Source: an uncultured Candidatus Micrarchaeota archaeon (GTDB taxonomy: Archaea; Micrarchaeota; Micrarchaeia; CAILAH01). Taken from it: a stretch of 64,000 nucleotides of DNA. The stretch's first letter is position 1. The number at the start of each line of letters is the position of its first letter. A program made the position numbers and the translations under genes. Location: NCBI GenBank assembly GCA_903832205.1, contig CAILAH010000038.1, forward strand, positions 4,456-68,455, given 5' to 3'. The notes beneath the pieces are model-generated. The model saw only the letters and a list, made by a program, of their open reading frames with translations, ran no database searches and was not told the DNA's origin. Of this stretch, positions 1,129 through 37,742 are shown piece by piece.

Positions 1129-2217
1129 CTAGAATTCAAGGATGGACTTCTGCCCTTTCCCTTCCTCAAGATTCTCCACGCGTACCCCAATCCTCCTGAG
1201 CTCGGCGCTCGTGCCCGCGAGCAGCTCCCTATAGAGCGCCTCAACCGCAACATAGATGATCTTTGGGTCGGCAGTGGCGCGGGGAAGCTTGCGCGATTTG
1301 GAGTGTGGCTCCATATTCTCATCCACCGCGTTGATGCCCACAACGGAGCATACCTTCCCCTCCTCACTAAGCTGTGCGGCCACATCTTTTACAAGCGGCT
1401 CAACATTATTCATAATATAGGAGATGTCGCGCGAATCCTCCTTGAGCGTCCTAATCCTGCTGATTTGCTTCCTTTCCAGCTTCTGCTCAACGTTATCATC
1501 GCTCTCGCCGTGGGCTGCAAGCACGAGCCAGGCGCCGAATTTCTTACCGAACGTCTCAATCAGGAGAGCGGGCGAAACCTTCTGCAAATCCGCAACCTTA
1601 TAGACGCCCATCAAATCGAGCGCCTCCGTGGTCTTGGGCCCAATCCCGGGAATCTCAGAGACGGGGAGCGTGCGCAGGAATTTCTCAGAACCCTTCGGAA
1701 GGACTACAGTAAGCCCATCGGGCTTCTTCATCCCGCACGCTATCTTGGAGATAATCTTTGTGGCCCCAACCCCGATTGAGCAGGTGAGCCCCACATCCGC
1801 AAGCACCTCTTTCTTAATTTTCCTAGCCAATTTCTCAGCAAGGGCAAAATCACCCTTGCATCTCTCAGTGACGTCAATGAACGCCTCATCAATGCTGACC
1901 TGCTCGAACTTATCGGCATTCCTTATGAGCACTTCCATCACTTTCATTGAATATTCCTCATAAAGCTCATGCCGAACGGGAAGGAATGCAGAATCAACAC
2001 CTGCCAATCTCTTTTTCGCAAAAGCAATGGGAATGCCTGACTTGACGCCGAACTTGCGCGCAGTATAATTAGAGGTGGCAACCGCACCGCTTGATTCACT
2101 GCGGCCGGAGAACATGCAAACCACAACGGGCTTTCCCCTTAGCGAAGGGTCAAGCAGCTCCTCAACCTGCGCATAGAAGTAGTCCAGGTCCATGAGCATT
2201 ATTACCCGCTGCTGCAT
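1129..2217 (-). CDS. dinB: Y-family DNA polymerase IV (DinB/Dpo4-like)
   Basis: N-terminus MLMDLDYFYAQVEE… and SIDEAFIDVT are classic Y-family palm motifs. The 362 aa length also fits. Confidence 0.85.
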   Translation of the reverse strand: MQQRVIMLMDLDYFYAQVEELLDPSLRGKPVVVCMFSGRSESSGAVATSNYTARKFGVKSGIPIAFAKKRLAGVDSAFLPVRHELYEEYSMKVMEVLIRNADKFEQVSIDEAFIDVTERCKGDFALAEKLARKIKKEVLADVGLTCSIGVGATKIISKIACGMKKPDGLTVVLPKGSEKFLRTLPVSEIPGIGPKTTEALDLMGVYKVADLQKVSPALLIETFGKKFGAWLVLAAHGESDDNVEQKLERKQISRIRTLKEDSRDISYIMNNVEPLVKDVAAQLSEEGKVCSVVGINAVDENMEPHSKSRKLPRATADPKIIYVAVEALYRELLAGTSAELRRIGVRVENLEEGKGQKSILEF

Positions 2218-2252
2218 ACTCTCATATCCTGTTTTTCTTTTATAATACTTAC

Positions 2253-2729
2253 GTGAGAAGTGTTCTTATGAAACTCTGGATGCTTCTTCTTATACTGCTT
2301 GCCACGCCGCTGGCGTTTGCGGATTGTGTAACTACCTACGACTCCTGCACGGCTTCCTGCTGTACTAACGTGGACGGGCAAGTCGATTACTCGAGTGGCA
2401 GCCCTACCTGCTCCGGCTATGGGGCAGTGAGCAAGGACAACTATGACACCTGCATCAGTATGGAATGTGTCTCGCCACTATTGACCTGCGTCGGCAGCTA
2501 CAGCTGCGCTGCAAAGCACTCCTCATGCCAGAACAGCTGCACGGGCGCACCTGGAAGCGGAGTGGGTGACTGCTACGCAACCTGTGATTCAGAGGGCGCG
2601 CAGTGCGCGATTGACGAGATGGACTCAGGCAACAATAACCCGCCAAGCCCATGCTGCAACGGCATAATGCTCGTCGGCGCAATACCATTGCTGTTCCTCC
2701 TTGGATTGCACATAAATAACAAGAGATGA
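2253..2729 (+). CDS. Small Cys-rich secreted protein, family member A (signal peptide; about 18 Cys; C-terminal CC-NG + IPLLF helix + basic tail)
   Basis: Signal peptide MKLWMLLLILLATPLAFA, likely true start M6 at about 2268. Mature part is rich in C/S/T/G/D. C-terminus is …PPSPCCNGIMLVGAIPLLFLLGLHINNKR. Confidence 0.6.
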   Translation: MRSVLMKLWMLLLILLATPLAFADCVTTYDSCTASCCTNVDGQVDYSSGSPTCSGYGAVSKDNYDTCISMECVSPLLTCVGSYSCAAKHSSCQNSCTGAPGSGVGDCYATCDSEGAQCAIDEMDSGNNNPPSPCCNGIMLVGAIPLLFLLGLHINNKR

Positions 2730-3181
2730 TTGGGATGAAGTATGCATTATTTCTAATGCTTCTGGCACCGCTCTGCTTCGCAAGCTGCGGAACCGTATTT
2801 GACCAGTGCCAGTGGGACTGCTGCTCCTCAACGGGCAATACGCCCAGCGGCTCATTCAGCAGCGACACCTACTCCTGCTCTTTTGACACTGACTATATGC
2901 CATATGACTCCTGCGTAAGCACCACCTGCACTCCAAACTATCTGGACTGCAATGGTGCGCCATACAGCTGCAAATCGCAGCAGCAGAGCTGCATACAGAA
3001 ATGCTATGGAAGCAGCGATGAGTACTGCTTTGAGACCTGCGACAACAACGCAATAGACTGCATGGATGCGGGCGGCACGCCCAACCCTCCCAGCCCGGGA
3101 TGCTGCGGCGGGGTTGCGCTCCTTTTGGGCGTCCCGTTCCTGTTCGTTGCGGGCAGGCAATTTACAAAAAAGGTGAACTAA
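2726..3181 (+). CDS. Small Cys-rich secreted protein, family member B
   Basis: Signal peptide MKYALFLMLLAPLCFA. C-terminus is …PPSPGCCGGVALLLGVPFLFVAGRQFTKKVN. Start overlaps the stop of A (tandem, same strand). Confidence 0.6.
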   Translation: MIGMKYALFLMLLAPLCFASCGTVFDQCQWDCCSSTGNTPSGSFSSDTYSCSFDTDYMPYDSCVSTTCTPNYLDCNGAPYSCKSQQQSCIQKCYGSSDEYCFETCDNNAIDCMDAGGTPNPPSPGCCGGVALLLGVPFLFVAGRQFTKKVN

Positions 3182-3565
3182 ATGAAATGGGCTATATTAC
3201 TAATACTGTTGTTGGCTCCGCTGTGCTTTGCGGTGGAATATCCGAACCATTACTGCGGCCAGTATCTGACGTCGTGCGTAAAGCAGTGCTGCCCGAGCGT
3301 CCCCACAGGCAACTGGGACGAGGCACAGCAGGACTGCATCTATGACACCAATACCGTCTCTGATGAGCAGGCAATGCAGATCTGCGGCACCTGCGTGGAC
3401 GAATACGCACAGTGCGATGCGACCTACAACAGCGACGGCTCGCTGAGAGGCGGCTACACGCCGACAACCCCTTCATCCTCAAGCAGCGGCTGCTGCGGCG
3501 GATTAATCGCGCTCATTGCACTGCCCCTATTGTTTATAGCGGGAATGAAGCTTTCAAGGAAATAG
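3182..3565 (+). CDS. Small Cys-rich secreted protein, family member C
   Basis: Signal peptide MKWAILLILLLAPLCFA. C-terminus is …SSSSGCCGGLIALIALPLLFIAGMKLSRK. Abuts B. Confidence 0.6.
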   Translation: MKWAILLILLLAPLCFAVEYPNHYCGQYLTSCVKQCCPSVPTGNWDEAQQDCIYDTNTVSDEQAMQICGTCVDEYAQCDATYNSDGSLRGGYTPTTPSSSSSGCCGGLIALIALPLLFIAGMKLSRK

Positions 3566-3645
3566 GCGCAGGTGCGCACACTTTCTCATTTTTTCTTTAC
3601 CTGCTTAACGATAAAACTAATAAGCCTCAGCGCTGATACATCCAC

Positions 3646-4587
3646 ATGGATGACGCCATCTCCGTAAGGAATGGTTCCAAGACATATCGCAGCGGCAAGG
3701 AGACCGTCATCGCTTTGGATGACATCTCGCTTTCCGTGAAGAAGGGCGAGATATTCGGCCTGCTCGGGCCCAACGGCGCGGGAAAGACATCACTAATCAG
3801 CATACTCGTGGGAATCCTCAATCCGGATTCCGGCTCTGCGGTAATATTCGGGAAGGACTGCGTCGAGGAGACGCAGGCGGTGCAGAGCAGTTTGAATTTA
3901 GTCTCGGGATTTTCAGGCGCAATAGGCTCGCTTTCGGTTGAGGAAGCGCTCACCTATTATGCAATGCTCTATAACGTGAAAGACTCGAAAAAGGTAATCG
4001 CCAGGCTCCTGAAGCAGATGAACCTGTATGAATCGCGCAACTGGACCGCGGAGGACCTTTCATCGGGCATGCGCCAGCGCTATTTCATATGTAGAGGACT
4101 GCTCAACGATCCGAAGCTGCTGGTGCTTGACGAGCCCACCGTAGGATTGGACGTGGAATCTGCAATAGATGTTCGCAAGATAATCAGGGACCTTAGGGCA
4201 AAGGGGCACACAATCCTGCTCACCACGCACAACATGTTCGAGGCGGAGGAGCTCTGCGACCGCATCGCGTTCATCAACCATGGGAAGATTCTTGCGATCG
4301 GAACGCCCGAAGAATTGAAAGGCAAAATCATAAGCCAGCGCACAATCGAGATACACTGCTCGATGGAGAAATGCGTCGCGGAGCAGCTGAAGGGCATGAA
4401 GGGCGTGAAGGCGCAGATAAAATCCCCGCAAATAGTCCACGTGACCGTTGACAGCTACACAAAAACCAAGGACATAATGCGCGCACTCGCCAGCTGCAAC
4501 GGTGAAATTTATTCAGTAAACGAAATGGAGCCGACATTTGAGGAAATCTACCTCAAGTTCATGAACAACAAGGGTGGCAAGAAATGA
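3646..4587 (+). CDS. ABC transporter ATP-binding protein
   Basis: Walker A GLLGPNGAGKTS, signature LSSGMRQR, Walker B LLVLDEPTVGLD, H-loop TTHNM. Confidence 0.9.
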   Translation: MDDAISVRNGSKTYRSGKETVIALDDISLSVKKGEIFGLLGPNGAGKTSLISILVGILNPDSGSAVIFGKDCVEETQAVQSSLNLVSGFSGAIGSLSVEEALTYYAMLYNVKDSKKVIARLLKQMNLYESRNWTAEDLSSGMRQRYFICRGLLNDPKLLVLDEPTVGLDVESAIDVRKIIRDLRAKGHTILLTTHNMFEAEELCDRIAFINHGKILAIGTPEELKGKIISQRTIEIHCSMEKCVAEQLKGMKGVKAQIKSPQIVHVTVDSYTKTKDIMRALASCNGEIYSVNEMEPTFEEIYLKFMNNKGGKK

Positions 4588-20929: not shown

Positions 20930-21049
20930 TGCGGCTGCCGAGATTTGAACTCGGGTCTCAGGCTTGCCTCGATTTCTTAGTGCAGGTTCCTTGCTGCGCA
21001 AAGAAAGTGCTTGGAAGGCCAGTGTCCTACCAGGCTAGACTACAGCCGC
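20930..21049 (-). tRNA. tRNA-Gly(UCC) with one intron at about 37/38 (47 nt; about 20965-21011)
   Basis: Hand-folded. Exon 1 GCGGCUGUAGUCUAGCCUGGUAGGACACUGGCCUUCCA. Exon 2 AGCCUGAGACCCGAGUUCAAAUCUCGGCAGCCGCA. One A·U mismatch in the anticodon stem. Spliced length 73 nt. Confidence 0.6.
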
Positions 21050-29265: not shown

Positions 29266-29301
29266 GGTTTAAATCACGTTATATCTCCTATAATCCCCGC
29301 T

Positions 29302-30528
29302 ATGGCAGAATCCTCAGTTACCATTGTAAATTCCGGCACTGGCCTTACACAGCGCCAGATCAGCCAGGAGATTATATCCAGACTTAAGATGATGGTTAGC
29401 GAGGCAAAGAAGCTGCTCAGGCAGAATAACATACGCGGCGCGGAGAGAAGGGTACACGATGCGCTTAACCTTGACCCGAACAATCCACAGGCCACATCGT
29501 TATTGATTAAGCTTTATTCGGGCACAGGCCGCGCATTCAAGGCCAGGAAGCTGTATGAGAGCGCAATTGAGCGCGGCATCGCATCAGGGCATTCGCCCGT
29601 CCCTATTTATGAGGCGTACCTGCGTGCGAACAAATCCACCCTCGCCCACGAGCTGCATCTGTTTTCAATTGAGAAAGGCGTGGCCCCGGCCGATGCCAAC
29701 TCTGCGCTCATTGCGGCATATTGCAAGTGCGGCCTTGTTGAGGAGGCACGTTCCATATTTGACACTGCATTGCAGGCAAAAGAGGTCAACCACTTCGCAT
29801 TCCTTTCCTTGATTCTGGGCTATAGCAGAAAGGATATGCCCGCCACTGTCATTAAGATATACGGGCTTGCAGAAGCCAATAACATGTGCAATGATGACAT
29901 AAACGATGCGATGATAATCACATTCGCAAAGGTGAACGACGCAGAATCCGCAGTCAGGCTGTTCAGCGGGTCACACAGGGGAATCATCCGCTCCCATGAG
30001 ACATTCGCCTCATTAATGCAGATGTATGCAAGATTGGGTAACGTGCCCAAGGCACGCGAGATATTTGACCTGTCAGTTGAGAAGGGATATGCGGATAACG
30101 TGACTTACGGCATCATGATTGACATCTACTGCACCGGAAAAGATACTGGGAATGTAAAAGGGCTGCAGCAAAAAGCGCTTGGCGCAAACCAGCTTGATAA
30201 GAGGGCCTACGCGTCGCTCATCCACTATTACTGCTCAATCGGCGATATTGATGAGGCGCGCAAGCTCTTTGATGACGGAGCACCGAGAAGGAAGGTTGAC
30301 AGCATGGACTGCACCACGCTTATGCACGTCTACCACGTCAAGTGGGAAATAGTAAATGCAAGGGAAGTGTATGAAATCGCAATCAAGAATGGCTTCTGCG
30401 ACTCCCGCTGCCATGACTATATGTATAATATCTATGAGATGCGGGGAGACCACAAGTCGGCAAAGGAAGTCTATGAGCAGTGGCTCAGGATTATGATAGA
30501 ACGGAGAAATTCCAGGCCCCATCCCTAG
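29302..30528 (+). CDS. PPR/TPR-like helical-repeat protein (about 10 degenerate 35-aa repeats)
   Basis: Repeated units ALIAAYCKCGLVEEARSIFDTA, TFASLMQMYARLGNVPKAREIFDL, YASLIHYYCSIGDIDEARKLFDDG and YGIMIDIYCTGKD are strikingly PPR-like. Confidence 0.6.
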   Translation: MAESSVTIVNSGTGLTQRQISQEIISRLKMMVSEAKKLLRQNNIRGAERRVHDALNLDPNNPQATSLLIKLYSGTGRAFKARKLYESAIERGIASGHSPVPIYEAYLRANKSTLAHELHLFSIEKGVAPADANSALIAAYCKCGLVEEARSIFDTALQAKEVNHFAFLSLILGYSRKDMPATVIKIYGLAEANNMCNDDINDAMIITFAKVNDAESAVRLFSGSHRGIIRSHETFASLMQMYARLGNVPKAREIFDLSVEKGYADNVTYGIMIDIYCTGKDTGNVKGLQQKALGANQLDKRAYASLIHYYCSIGDIDEARKLFDDGAPRRKVDSMDCTTLMHVYHVKWEIVNAREVYEIAIKNGFCDSRCHDYMYNIYEMRGDHKSAKEVYEQWLRIMIERRNSRPHP

Positions 30529-30596
30529 TTTGCAATTGTAACAAAAAGCTATTTTTGATACATACGTATTTATTCCGCGATTTCCTAACTTAATTC

Positions 30597-30782
30597 ATGG
30601 CCGCAAAAGGCATCCTTGGCATGATTGGAAATACGCCGCTTGTGAATGTTAACGGCATTCTTGCAAAGCTTGAGGCATACAATCCAACGGGAAGCGTAAA
30701 GGACAGGATGGCGCATTATATTGTCAAAAAGGCCGCAGAGGAAACAAACAAGGCGTATGAAGTGTGGCTGAAAAACAAGTAG
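30597..30782 (+). pseudogene. N-terminal 61-aa remnant of a PLP-dependent cysteine synthase/CBS-family gene (truncated)
   Basis: MIGNTPLVNVNGI…KLEAYNPTGSVKDRMAHYIV matches the CysK/CysM N-terminus (NPTGSVKDR carries the PLP-lysine region). The frame terminates after 61 codons next to tRNA-Val. Confidence 0.55.
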
Positions 30783-30808: not shown

Positions 30809-31081
30809 TGGACCCGCGCGGGATTGAACCGCGGATTTCTCGCGAAAGGGGATCTGCCGCCCCCACACATTTGCGAAAGCAAATGGTGGCGCTTTTTGGC
30901 ATGCGCCAAAACTGCGCTTCAACCCCAGGCTTGGGGCGCAGCCCCAAACCCCTGATTGAAAAGGCAGAAATCTTTCCCCAAACCCAATTTATACCCTGAG
31001 GGGGGATTGGGTCTTATGGGAAGGGGGCACTCCCCCTACCCATATGTGAGGCGAGCGTCTTAACCACTCGACTACGGGTCC
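30809..31081 (-). tRNA. tRNA-Val(CAC) with an unusually long (about 200 nt) intron at 37/38; exons 31081-31045 and 30844-30809
   Basis: Exon 1 GGACCCGUAGUCGAGUGGUUAAGACGCUCGCCUCACA. Exon 2 CGCGAGAAAUCCGCGGUUCAAUCCCGCGCGGGUCCA. Spliced length 73 nt. The intron 5' part is homologous to the tRNA-Pro intron. Confidence 0.6.
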
Positions 31082-34467: not shown

Positions 34468-36051
34468 ATGGATTCCGGCAAGGACGGCAAGAACAAGCGG
34501 CAGGAAGCGATTGACAGGGTTATTGATGAGGTTGTGAAATCAGAGAAGGCCGATGTTGAGAAATACAAGAGGCAATACAGCAAGGAATACGGGTTGGCTA
34601 TCTTCATCAGGAATTCAGAGCTTGTTGGCAGGGCAAGGGAGCGCAATCTCGAGCAGCTCATCCCGTTTTTGCGCAAGAGGCCCATGAGAAGCATTAGCGG
34701 CATTGTGAATCTTGCCATAATGACTGTGAGCGACTGCCCGCACGGCAGGTGCACCTACTGCCCCAAGGGTGATGGGACGCCGAATTCATATACGGGGTTT
34801 GAGCCCGCGACAATGCGCGGCATCCAGAACAAGTATAATGCCTACGACCAGATAATTTCGCGCGTAACACAGCTCACTGAGATTGGGCACCCTACCGATA
34901 AGTGCGAGGTGATTGTGCAGGGCGGCACGTTCCCCGCGCAGGAGCTTTCCTATCAGCAGCAGTTCATTCTCGACATGTACAACGCACTAAACGGAATTAA
35001 ATCAGCAACAATCCAGGAAGCCATAACAAAAAACGAGAGCGCCCCGCACAGGTGCATCGGATTGACAATTGAGACAAGGCCCGACTGGTGCTTTGAGAAG
35101 CATGTTGACGGAATGCTCGCGTTTGGAGCAACGCGTGTTGAGATTGGCGTACAGACGCTTAAGCGCGATGTTCTTGAAAAGACAAAAAGGGGGCATACGC
35201 TTGAGGACGTATGGAAATCAACACAGATAGCGAGGGATTCGCTGCTCAAGGTATGCTATCACATGATGCCCGGGCTCTATGCATCGCCGAAAGAGGACGT
35301 GGACATGTTCAGGCAGCTTTTTGAGGATGCGCACTATAAGCCGGACATGCTTAAGATCTATCCGTTCCTCGTGATGAAAGGCACGGAGATTTACAAGGAA
35401 TGGGAGGACGGGAAAATCAAGCCCTACACAAGCGAGGAAGCTGCCGATGTAATCGCGGATGCCTACAGGCACATCCCCTATTACGCCAGGGTTATGCGCG
35501 TCCAAAGGGATATTCCGGCATACCTTATTGATGACGGCGTAAAGAAGAGCAACCTGCGCGAGGCAGTTGAGATACGGCTTAGGAAAAACAAGATGCCGAT
35601 TGAAGAGATGCGCTACAGGGAAGTGGGCCATAACGTGTTGAAGGGCAAAGCGAAAATGGAGGACTTAAATCCCGAACTGCTGGTGCGCAAGTATGATGCG
35701 TCCGAAGGCGAGGAATATTTCATCAGCTTTGAGGATAAGAAAACCAATCTGCTTTTTGGATTCCTGCGCCTGCGCAATCCGGCACATCCGCATCGCAAGG
35801 AGATAACCAGTAAATCCGCAGGCATAAGGGAGCTTCATGTTTACGGCGAGCAATTGCCCCTCAGCAAGCGCAGCGACACCTCACCGCAGCATACTGGTCT
35901 CGGTAAAAGCCTGATGGACGAGGCGGAGAGGATTGCAAAAGAGGAATTCGACTCCAACAAGATCCTTGTAATTAGCGGAGTTGGTGTGAGGAATTACTAC
36001 AGAAAACTGGGATACGAATTGGACGGGCCATATATGTCAAAATTAATCTAA
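34468..36051 (+). CDS. elp3: Elp3-like radical-SAM/GNAT tRNA uridine-34 acetyltransferase
   Basis: Radical-SAM cluster CPHGRCTYCP and a C-terminal GNAT domain (LHVYGEQLPL…HTGLGKSLMDEAERIA). 527 aa. Confidence 0.8.
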   Translation: MDSGKDGKNKRQEAIDRVIDEVVKSEKADVEKYKRQYSKEYGLAIFIRNSELVGRARERNLEQLIPFLRKRPMRSISGIVNLAIMTVSDCPHGRCTYCPKGDGTPNSYTGFEPATMRGIQNKYNAYDQIISRVTQLTEIGHPTDKCEVIVQGGTFPAQELSYQQQFILDMYNALNGIKSATIQEAITKNESAPHRCIGLTIETRPDWCFEKHVDGMLAFGATRVEIGVQTLKRDVLEKTKRGHTLEDVWKSTQIARDSLLKVCYHMMPGLYASPKEDVDMFRQLFEDAHYKPDMLKIYPFLVMKGTEIYKEWEDGKIKPYTSEEAADVIADAYRHIPYYARVMRVQRDIPAYLIDDGVKKSNLREAVEIRLRKNKMPIEEMRYREVGHNVLKGKAKMEDLNPELLVRKYDASEGEEYFISFEDKKTNLLFGFLRLRNPAHPHRKEITSKSAGIRELHVYGEQLPLSKRSDTSPQHTGLGKSLMDEAERIAKEEFDSNKILVISGVGVRNYYRKLGYELDGPYMSKLI

Positions 36052-37742
36052 TGGCCCAATCGATGTTTTTTTGCTTGTAAACATTCAATAGCAGCTGTTT
36101 TAAGCCCCACAACCTTTTCACATGTTATTAGTATTTTGTTAATTGCCGCTATGAGCCCCTCAACGTCCTGATTGACATCATGCCTAAAGGATATTCTAAT
36201 ATCGAGACTAACTGGCATTCCAATAGATTCATTGTATTCCCAAGTGTCCCTAAGTTCAGGTGGAACTGATAGGCCTAATGAGTTATCAAACATGTCGTAC
36301 GCCCTCGCAATCTCGTCACACCAGTCCAAATTCTTAATGTCCGTTACATGATATTCCGTCTTATTAAATCTTATAAAAAAATTCTTTGGCAATGGCGAGG
36401 GCAGCGCCAAATATCCTGAAAGGTAACGATTCGGATTAAGCAATAACTTTTGAAAATACAATTTTACATTATCTGTTGTGCTAATAGGTTTTATGTAAAA
36501 TTCAATACCGTTATTCAATCTGATCGCAGCCTTACTGCACGCATCAAGTGACCGGCGATTCCTTTTTTCAATATGTGTGAGTATGGGTTCCATAACTCCA
36601 TTAATTATTCTATTTCTCATTTCAAGCAGCACTTCATTCCTTCTATCAATTGATATTGATTCGAGGTCCTCAAGTGCCTTGTAAAGTGAATACAACTCAG
36701 GCAATGATACTCTATATTTCGGTTTCCAAATTCTATGTGAATTATTTGGTGCAAGGGCAGTTTTGTTGCTGAATTCACCTAATATCTGTGGGTGTGATGT
36801 TAATGGAAGAAATTTTTGTGTAGTGCCCAAGACCTCATCACTTACATATGATATCCCTATGGTTGGCTCTGCGCCAAGTGTCTTAGATGAAGACATAATG
36901 CATATGTCTCCAAGTAATGGCGCATCAAAATCAATTGAGCTAAAGGTATGTGAACAGTCAACAAGCTTTATTCTAGTGCTATCATACCCTATTTTAGCAC
37001 CTAATGCATCCTCATTTATTTCTCCAGTAGTCCGATGACAGTGTTCATAAACATCAATAAATGCAGCATTTTTTGCTTCAGCTTTGCCGATTGATATTAT
37101 TGGTTCTCCAGTAGTTTTCTCCAATGGAAAGTCTGCAGTGGAGTATATAAATATCAGCGCCATATCGGACAAACGAATGCCTCCGAAAATGCGACGATCC
37201 TTTTCATTAATGGAAGACAAATTTTTTGGATTTATGCGAGTGAGTACAATACTATTACGTTTACACATTTGAGCAATGCTATTTCCAATAAGCAATGCTG
37301 ATTCACATGAATTTATTCCATAATTTTGCCGTGTGAGATTTTTGTCTCTATGTTTTCCTTTAATCAAATCCTGCCAAAAATCAATATCACTTAAAGTGGG
37401 GTATAAATCATTGCCTTGATGGGTGATTATGAGCCCGTTTTTTTTATTTTTCTCAAGCAGTGCAAGAATGTGCGGAAACGCCGCGGCCGTGGCAGATGAG
37501 GAGAGCGAGACGTTTTTCGGGTCACAATGAATCCTTTTTGCAATCTTTTCGCGGACTGCCTCGGACATCTCAATTACAAGTCTCGCAAGTTTCCTGTGCC
37601 TGCCGTCGCGCTCAAACCTCATTATCTCTTCGTTCATCAGCTTTGCGCATTTGTGGTACCTATCGGTTGCACGTACGCCAGCTGCCCAGTCAAAATACAT
37701 ATTCTCTCTTATGGCATACTTGCCATCGCCTTTCATCATCAA
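36048..37742 (-). CDS. PLP-dependent class-V-aminotransferase/cysteine-desulfurase-like N-terminal domain fused to a large uncharacterised C-terminal region; lies in a low-GC island
   Basis: SSSKTLGAEP resembles the SufS/NifS PLP-lysine box S(G/S)HKxxGP. The ORF is visibly AT-rich (about 38-40% GC against about 52% in flanks). Confidence 0.4.
   Translation of the reverse strand: MMMKGDGKYAIRENMYFDWAAGVRATDRYHKCAKLMNEEIMRFERDGRHRKLARLVIEMSEAVREKIAKRIHCDPKNVSLSSSATAAAFPHILALLEKNKKNGLIITHQGNDLYPTLSDIDFWQDLIKGKHRDKNLTRQNYGINSCESALLIGNSIAQMCKRNSIVLTRINPKNLSSINEKDRRIFGGIRLSDMALIFIYSTADFPLEKTTGEPIISIGKAEAKNAAFIDVYEHCHRTTGEINEDALGAKIGYDSTRIKLVDCSHTFSSIDFDAPLLGDICIMSSSKTLGAEPTIGISYVSDEVLGTTQKFLPLTSHPQILGEFSNKTALAPNNSHRIWKPKYRVSLPELYSLYKALEDLESISIDRRNEVLLEMRNRIINGVMEPILTHIEKRNRRSLDACSKAAIRLNNGIEFYIKPISTTDNVKLYFQKLLLNPNRYLSGYLALPSPLPKNFFIRFNKTEYHVTDIKNLDWCDEIARAYDMFDNSLGLSVPPELRDTWEYNESIGMPVSLDIRISFRHDVNQDVEGLIAAINKILITCEKVVGLKTAAIECLQAKKHRLGH

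Follow-up and report, generated by a model that had tools for sequence, protein, structure and literature searches.

Organization of the locus

The window, by which we mean the whole 64,000-nucleotide stretch of DNA that was analysed, contains on its forward strand (29302–30528) a coding sequence for a PPR-like helical-repeat protein of 408 amino acids, which starts with ATG and ends with the stop codon TAG at 30526–30528. The position and length originally given for this open reading frame agree exactly with the ORF list. The N-terminal non-repeat part of the protein (residues 1–27; 29302–29382, forward strand) is of low confidence or disordered over residues 1–14, and a hydrophobic signal-like segment was not seen when residues 1–27 were inspected by eye. 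It is followed by unit 1 (residues 28–61; 29383–29484, forward strand), a TPR-like capping repeat with the end ALNLDPNN, and then by units 2–11 (residues 62–401; 29485–30504, forward strand), which are ten PPR-like helix-turn-helix repeats of 34 residues apiece. The C-terminal tail beyond unit 11 consists of 7 residues.

The gene is preceded by the TATA-like hexamer TTTAAA (29268–29273, forward strand), located 34 nt 5' of the ATG. Reading of the sequence makes this hexamer a candidate promoter of archaeal type, from which a transcript with a short leader or none would start; a hexamer of this kind is found between −40 and −24 in just 4 of the 42 ORFs of the window. An oligo-T run at 30552–30556 (forward strand), 24 nt past the stop codon, is a possible archaeal terminator. 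Further downstream and on the reverse strand, a gene for tRNA-Val(CAC) with an intron of approximately 200 nt is present at 30810–31081. ARAGORN and Rfam did not detect a tRNA-Val(CAC) at 30810–31081, but splicing in silico yields a valid tRNA-Val, and both of its exon halves are conserved in four related loci (L016, L018, L019 and L021). This tRNA gene forms the downstream border of the variable slot in which the PPR-like gene resides. A truncated 61-aa PALP gene fragment adjoins the PPR-like gene.

The composition of the gene is native to its genome. Its GC content is 0.504 as compared to 0.516 ± 0.029 in the other genes of the window, its GC3 is 0.619 as compared to 0.646 ± 0.068, and by codon-usage distance it ranks ninth among the 42 window genes. 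An identical 408-aa protein is also encoded by an independent contig in ENA. Repeats of at least 14 nt, direct or inverted, were not found around the slot, and PADLOC and PHROGs gave no match for the PPR-like protein; with no att-like repeats and no such matches, an integrated mobile element or a defence island is unsupported. Contamination or a recent foreign origin was considered as well and is ruled out by the native composition and the synteny described below.

Host and conservation of the gene order

Genes for GGGP synthase, geranylgeranyl reductase, DUF373, an archaeal GluRS, LonB, Elp3 and SecDF are present in the window. These archaeal markers, together with the DPANN/Micrarchaeota relatives of Elp3, confirm the archaeal host that had been proposed. 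Ca. Micrarchaeota, including Ca. Gugararchaeum, are the nearest named relatives by Elp3 (50–51% identity), and other relatives reach 70–94% identity. Judged from similarity of Elp3 alone, the phylum of the host would be Micrarchaeota; the host would be a small archaeon of the symbiotic DPANN type.

In the loci L016 and L018, where Elp3 is 73% and 70% identical to that of the window, the order DUF373, wHTH, epimerase, slot, tRNA, RsmB/F methyltransferase, PUA, PcrB and Elp3 is conserved. The slot is occupied by a HIT-family gene in L016 and by an ankyrin-repeat gene in L018, and tblastn searches of these two loci did not find a PPR-like sequence. In L021 (Elp3 identity of 78%), an ankyrin-repeat gene lies directly upstream of the tRNA and the methyltransferase, and a long-form PPR-like gene is located between PUA and PcrB. 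The ankyrin-repeat genes of these relatives hint that the slot gathers accessory genes with interaction modules.

The neighbourhood is rich in tRNA-processing functions, namely Elp3, Trm1, the CCA-adding enzyme and the m5C-type methyltransferase, and a functional tie of the PPR-like protein to this context had been suggested. This suggestion is not supported, since the gene order is conserved in L016, L018 and L021 without the gene in the slot. Because the neighbourhood is conserved with or without the PPR-like gene, it is uninformative on the function of this gene.

An ortholog (P0016) is present in the same position and orientation in L019, which comes from a JGI metagenome, and shares 64–65% identity with our protein. 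The neighbouring methyltransferase and PUA genes of L019 are 94% and 85% identical, respectively, to those of the window. Between the window and L019, dN/dS is 0.19 for the PPR-like gene, 0.075 for the methyltransferase gene and 0.16 for the PUA gene. The PPR-like gene is thus a real gene under purifying selection, which evolves fast and is confined to a narrow subclade, in a variable slot.

Period and architecture of the repeats

Autocorrelation of the protein sequence with BLOSUM62 gave z-scores of 10.0, 10.7 and 8.8 for lags of 34, 68 and 102 residues, respectively, and none of the 2000 shuffles matched the observed values. Residues 28–401, when written in rows of 34, fall into eleven units with zero indels. 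The original prediction of about ten tandem units of 35 aa is therefore correct in regard to the tandem repeats but not in regard to their length, which is 34 aa; the z-score at lag 35 is −1.3. The consensus that had been claimed is kept at L/M-I (columns 7–8), Y11, K/R13, G15, A20, R/K21 and F/Y24, and the consensus of units 2–11 reads ..A..sLI..Ycr.GD...ARELYe.Aie.GiaD.

The PPR repeat unit is defined as a degenerate unit of 35 residues (PMC4029402, PMC1892557). By length alone, our units depart from this definition and have the 34 residues of a TPR. In the HMMER alignment to the designer protein dPPR, the loop between repeats is short by one residue, at the site of Pro34 of the PPR. Unit 1 is overlapped by the Pfam models TPR_19 (residues 38–90) and TPR_16 (residues 34–92).

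Assignment to the PPR family

Scored over the whole protein, the Pfam PPR models PF01535, PF13041 and PF12854 reach 82.6 bits (cut-off 25), 64.3 bits (cut-off 30) and 58.8 bits (cut-off 23.8), respectively, and the NCBIfam PPR model TIGR00756 reaches 74.4 bits (cut-off 20). The best of the TPR models is TPR_19 with 50.9 bits, chiefly over the N-terminal cap, and both TPR_19 and TPR_14 also exceed their cut-offs. The PPR identity first proposed is thus upheld, as Pfam PPR, PPR_2 and PPR_1 as well as TIGR00756 lie above their cut-offs and above every TPR model. A generic TPR/Sel1 protein lacking PPR support, which was the outcome named in advance as contrary to this identity, is not what the models describe. 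When units were scored singly, PPR was the top family in units 2, 4, 7, 8 and 9 (15.5, 26.9, 23.3, 12.4 and 26.9 bits, respectively), while units 1, 3, 5, 6 and 10 gave no score of their own, being too degenerate.

A sequence search of the PDB returned PPR proteins as its best 19 matches, including the designer dPPR (3.8e-33) and maize PPR10 (2e-19). In profile comparison with hhalign, the unit profile of our protein scored 43.9 against eukaryotic 35-aa PPRs and 22.6 against TPRs; the scores of 49.9 against bacterial 34-aa PPRs and 44.6 against the archaeal relatives are biased upward, as both of these 34-aa unit sets were collected with a PSSM seeded with our protein.

Units 2–11 also depart from the TPR signature. 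Column 8, which is Gly or Ala in the TPR, carries a bulky Ile, Met or Tyr in all ten PPR-like units, and P32 of the TPR signature occurs in unit 1 only and is absent from units 2–11. A20 and A/S27 are found in our units and are also common to the 34-aa PPR class described below. Traits of the protein that resemble the TPR are the unit length of 34 residues, the type of its cap and the presence of Ala or Ser at column 27. The PPR label as such is not new, since automated annotation would already call the protein PPR-containing.

Predicted structure

An AlphaFold2 model built from an alignment of six sequences has a mean pLDDT of 85.7 and contains 22 helices arranged in 11 pairs, one per unit. 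Between residues 164 and 368, the A helices start at intervals of exactly 34 residues, and pLDDT is below 50 over residues 1–14. In a Foldseek search with this model, ranks 1–22 are PPR structures (E-values from 2.6e-11 to 7e-7), and the TPR solenoids Ski3, OGT and APC/C follow below them from approximately 1e-6. The predicted model is thus an alpha-solenoid of helix-turn-helix units for which PPR proteins are the nearest solved structures. TM-scores between the model and the PPR structures are just 0.43–0.53, and given these modest values the geometry of the superhelix may differ from that of the PPR structures.

Relatives and the class with a 34-residue unit

In an exhaustive HMMER search against 1.84 billion representatives, 4046 matches had E ≤ 1e-3, and P0016, a fragment of 96 aa with 64% identity to residues 313–408 of our protein, is the sole near relative among them. 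Pattern scans with the protein against GTDB genomes and JGI metagenomes did not find relatives. Among the best 149 HMMER matches, a period of 31 aa, which is of the plant PLS type, is seen in 74, the P-type period of 35 aa in 56 and a period of 34 aa in 16. The last of these form a distinct class, which includes ranks 1 and 2, namely P0012 from a Burkholderiaceae MAG and P0013 from a Polyangia MAG (as named by the source only). None of the 130 matches of the 35-aa and 31-aa classes has a strict 34-residue period.

Members of the 34-aa class share the consensus xVTYNALLDAYGKAGDLxxAEEVFxxAxAAGLA[DN], keep a spacing of 34 in almost all successive pairs of units and score 142–453 bits with the Pfam PPR model; an origin was assigned for 7 of the 16 proteins. 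Our protein fits this consensus at columns 7, 8, 11, 13, 15, 20, 24, 27, 31, 33 and 34, and the T3-Y4-N5 motif of the class is weak in it. We also considered an extra catalytic domain at the C-terminus of P0012, which is unsupported by Pfam at E ≤ 1e-6.

The shorter members P0080, P0109, P0028 and P0156 have a TPR-like N-terminal cap at the same offset as in our protein. P0080 (MFH1221513.1) is annotated as Ca. Micrarchaeota and its gene neighbours encode exosome Rrp4/41/42, L37ae, SRP54 and eIF-6. The neighbours of P0109 are A-type ATPase, L15e and diphthamide synthase genes, those of P0156 are DUF424 and NFACT, and those of P0028 are an aCPSF1-like beta-CASP gene and proteasome genes. The long-form protein of L021 (L021b; 1955–3697 of that locus, 580 aa) aligns over approximately 500 residues with P0080, P0028 and P0109, including their C-terminal extension, and scores 55 bits with TPR_19 as compared to 42 bits with PPR. 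Such scores suggest that the archaeal family with a TPR cap and PPR-like units straddles the boundary between TPR and PPR.

Residues of the RNA code and the probable ligand

In the plant PPR code, the residues at position 5 and at the last position of a repeat specify the base, such that S/N reads A and T/D reads G. Position 5 in units 2–11 of our protein is S, V, S, L, D, A, G, A, T and D. Ser, Thr or Asn is thus present at this position in 3 of the 10 units (p = 0.21), whereas 8 of the 10 units end in Asp, Asn or Ser (p = 4e-5), an enrichment which could be mere N-capping of the helix. Canonical code pairs occur in two of the ten units only, unit 4 (S/N) and unit 10 (T/D). The RNA target that was to be read from the PPR code was attempted on these residues, and none is predictable because position 5 is degenerate. 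The bacterial members of the 34-aa class retain the base-specifying residues, with Asn, Ser or Thr at position 5 and Asp or Asn at the last position. Lys or Arg occupies PPR position 13 in 6 of the 11 units of our protein, and its pI is 8.6.

From these observations, we infer a cytoplasmic alpha-solenoid in which one TPR-like cap unit is followed by ten PPR-like units of 34 residues. By analogy to PPR proteins, an extended single-stranded RNA would lie along the inner face of the solenoid, which the A helices form, and the degenerate position 5 would make recognition of this RNA non-canonical or of low specificity. The PPR-like class with a 34-aa period occurs in bacterial MAGs and in several archaea of DPANN/Micrarchaeota type. 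Our protein is one of its divergent members, and the gene is a lineage-specific accessory of the host, inherited vertically in a narrow subclade and evolving fast under purifying selection in a variable slot. Taken as a whole, we lean towards this explanation, a divergent 34-aa PPR-like solenoid encoded by an accessory gene and most likely binding ssRNA. Binding of ssRNA by a PPR-type solenoid is, by this analogy, the most likely role, and a protein scaffold is its chief rival.

As a scaffold in the manner of TPR proteins, the solenoid would mediate protein-protein interactions, and its PPR-like sequence would come from the shared ancestry of both repeats and not from RNA binding; it may then be an accessory factor for contact of the symbiont with its host or with other components of the cell. 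The 34-residue unit, the TPR-like unit 1, the scores of TPR_19 and TPR_14 above their cut-offs and the small side chain found in column 27 are consistent with such a role, as are the degenerate position 5, the ankyrin-repeat proteins, classic protein-binding repeats, that fill the slot in L018 and L021, and the archaeal relative L021b with a TPR score above that for PPR. However, PPR ranks over TPR in every sequence and fold ranking, column 8 is Ile, Met or Tyr and not Gly or Ala in the ten PPR-like units, Pro32 is confined to unit 1, and the residues of the RNA code are retained in the sister bacterial class. We regard the scaffold as a serious but less likely alternative.

Origin of the gene

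The original prediction had offered two sources for an archaeal PPR protein, transfer from a eukaryote or an independent family of RNA-binding repeats. The second of these comes closest to the data; RNA binding, which was part of the same proposal, would be a property ascribed to the protein by analogy. In the broadest form of this idea, the 34-aa repeats of bacteria and DPANN would be native prokaryotic RNA-binding solenoids intermediate between TPR and the eukaryotic PPR, the PPR fold and RNA reading would predate eukaryotes, and our protein would serve in the RNA metabolism of the archaeon. We consider so far-reaching a proposal unlikely. As to an intermediate position, the repeats combine the length, the cap and the Ala27 of the TPR with a PPR core and residues of the PPR code.

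Acquisition of a plant or protist PPR gene by the archaeon through horizontal transfer would agree with the overwhelmingly eukaryotic distribution of PPR proteins, which prokaryotes typically lack (PMC4029402). The word-indexed homology search also gave only plant PLS/DYW proteins, at approximately 22% identity. We judge these plant matches to be misleading, because a P-L-S triplet (35 + 36 + 31 = 102 residues) has an average of approximately 34 residues per repeat and so fits the lag-102 peak of our protein; the prokaryotic class came to light only with the exhaustive HMMER search. Identity to eukaryotic proteins does not exceed approximately 31%, the strict 34-residue period is absent from all matches of the 35-aa and 31-aa classes, composition of the gene is fully native, and relatives of the same architecture are found in several archaeal lineages. 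The best matches and the proteins that share this architecture are prokaryotic with a 34-aa period, which speaks against the transfer. The sequence comparisons thus indicate that the protein is not a recent plant import, as its nearest relatives are prokaryotic and its unit has 34 and not 35 residues. An ancient transfer from a eukaryote may have occurred, and a eukaryotic source on the whole appears very improbable to us.

An artefact of assembly or binning, or a decaying and non-functional ORF, might be suspected from the location in a variable slot beside the PALP fragment and from the faster divergence as compared to the neighbours (65% identity against 94% and 85%), but this reading is largely refuted and scarcely credible in view of the syntenic archaeal genes on both flanks, the identical protein on the independent ENA contig, the positional ortholog in the JGI metagenome with dN/dS of 0.19, the frame that is intact over eleven indel-free units and the confident structure model.

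Implications

In organelles, PPR proteins act as the chief programmable readers of RNA. In the literature they are viewed as essentially eukaryotic and as having a unit of 35 residues, and a prokaryotic 34-aa class that includes archaea with tiny genomes would bear on this view. Among the papers covered by our literature search, none linked the term pentatricopeptide with DPANN, and nothing relevant was listed for Asgard, Micrarchaeota or Lokiarchaeota. The coherent 34-aa class, its occurrence in archaea and the architecture with a TPR cap appear to be undescribed. In regard to the origins of PPR proteins, the class could mark an intermediate on the way from TPR to PPR or a prokaryotic origin. 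It would also bear on how far an RNA-reading solenoid tolerates a shorter inter-repeat loop, which is relevant for designer PPRs. In practical terms, the gene encodes a real accessory protein that evolves fast; its position in a tRNA-rich neighbourhood is a coincidence, and the plant code predicts no target for the protein.

Comparison with known systems

P-class PPR proteins, such as maize PPR10 (4M57/4M59) and the designer dPPR (5I9D/5I9F), resemble our protein in their tandem helix-turn-helix units, in the HMMs that recognize them and in the signature T-Y/F-x-x-L-I...Y/C-K-x-G...A...F...G, and they are its best matches in the PDB by both sequence and fold. Our protein in turn would form a solenoid of their right-handed type, as predicted, with 11 units. 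In contrast to them, it has a unit of 34 aa in which the loop residue aligned with Pro34 is absent, carries mostly Ala, Gly, Val, Leu or Asp and not Asn, Ser or Thr at position 5, begins with a TPR-type cap and comes from an archaeal host without organelles.

TPR proteins share with our protein the 34-residue helix-turn-helix, the 'LDPNN' at the end of unit 1 and the small residues at columns 20 and 27. They differ in having Gly or Ala at column 8, where our units have a bulky hydrophobic residue, and in Pro32, which is absent from units 2–11.

PPR proteins of bacteria numbered, as of 2010, a dozen from Ralstonia and Rhodobacter and two in Legionella longbeachae (PMC2824747); proteins with PPR domains are described from Ralstonia solanacearum, Rhodobacter sphaeroides and L. 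longbeachae (Llo1404 and Llo2643) (PMC2824747). Compared by description only, they are like our protein in scoring as PPR and in being rare exceptions in prokaryotic genomes, and unlike it in being bacterial and in usually being discussed as eukaryote-like or as effectors.

The archaeal proteins P0080, P0109, P0028, P0156 and L021b are just 18–27% identical to our protein and lack conserved synteny with one another. P0080, P0109, P0028 and L021b continue at the C-terminus with approximately 150–200 helical residues that share a motif of the 'RILCG.VF' type, an extension which is lacking in both P0156 and our protein. All five are nevertheless like our protein in having a cap followed by PPR-like units of approximately 34 aa in archaeal contexts, and for four of them the best-scoring Pfam family is PPR.

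An intron-bearing tRNA-Val gene and its variable neighbourhood

The gene for tRNA-Val(CAC), recovered by in-silico splicing at window positions 30810-31081 on the minus strand, contains an intron, about 200 nt long, that is inserted after the anticodon loop. Neither ARAGORN nor Rfam detected the gene at this position. Orthologues are present in the loci of related genomes L016 (6970-7428, minus strand) and L018 (6364-6621, plus strand), and also in L019 and L021; in L018 the orientation of the gene is flipped compared to the adjoining genes. The exon halves are 91-100% conserved across four related genomes while the spacing between them varies from 104 to 391 nt, and the introns share a mere 45-67% sequence identity between genomes. 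A strong structure is predicted for the intron of the window, with an MFE of -105.9 kcal/mol (z of about -11 against mononucleotide shuffles). A second tRNA, matched by Rfam with 54.5 bits at 20930-21049 on the minus strand, was likewise not detected by ARAGORN, and its match spans 120 nt, which implies an intron.

The position beside tRNA-Val is a small hot spot for accessory repeat genes, some of them 'eukaryote-like'. It is filled by the PPR-like gene in the window, by ankyrin-repeat proteins in two relatives (L018 5439-6224, minus strand, and L021 3-419, plus strand) and by a HIT/DcpS-like protein in a third (L016 5909-6859, minus strand). Between the PPR-like gene and tRNA-Val lies an ORF of 61 amino acids (30597-30782, plus strand), which comprises the N-terminal part alone of a PLP-dependent (PALP, cysteine-synthase-like) enzyme. 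This ORF is not conserved at the orthologous locus of L019 and looks like a gene remnant.

A low-GC ORF between Elp3 and LonB

An ORF of 563 amino acids (36048-37739, minus strand) separates Elp3 from LonB in the window; in the relatives L017 and L018, Elp3 is followed directly by LonB. The GC content around this ORF drops markedly, to 0.40 as compared to about 0.51 window-wide. Searches of Pfam, NCBIfam and PHROGs gave no match to it, and its PADLOC matches are marginal only. The ORF is likely a foreign insertion.

PPR-like proteins outside the window

The long-form archaeal PPR-like proteins (L021 1955-3697, P0080, P0109 and P0028) have in common a helical C-terminal extension of about 150-200 residues, inside which a conserved 'RILCG.VF'-like motif is located. 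Apart from TPR-type matches, Pfam assigned no specific family to this extension. About 1150 further C-terminal residues of another protein, P0012, were without a Pfam match at E <= 1e-6. P0012 is one of nine large metagenomic PPR proteins of 546-1826 amino acids (with P0013, P0025, P0033, P0035, P0051, P0056, P0062 and P0092), two of which carry bacterial MAG labels (Burkholderiaceae and Polyangia). These proteins contain up to about 25 near-identical 34-residue PPR units each, and their code residues are canonical, with N/S/T at position 5 and D/N at the last position.
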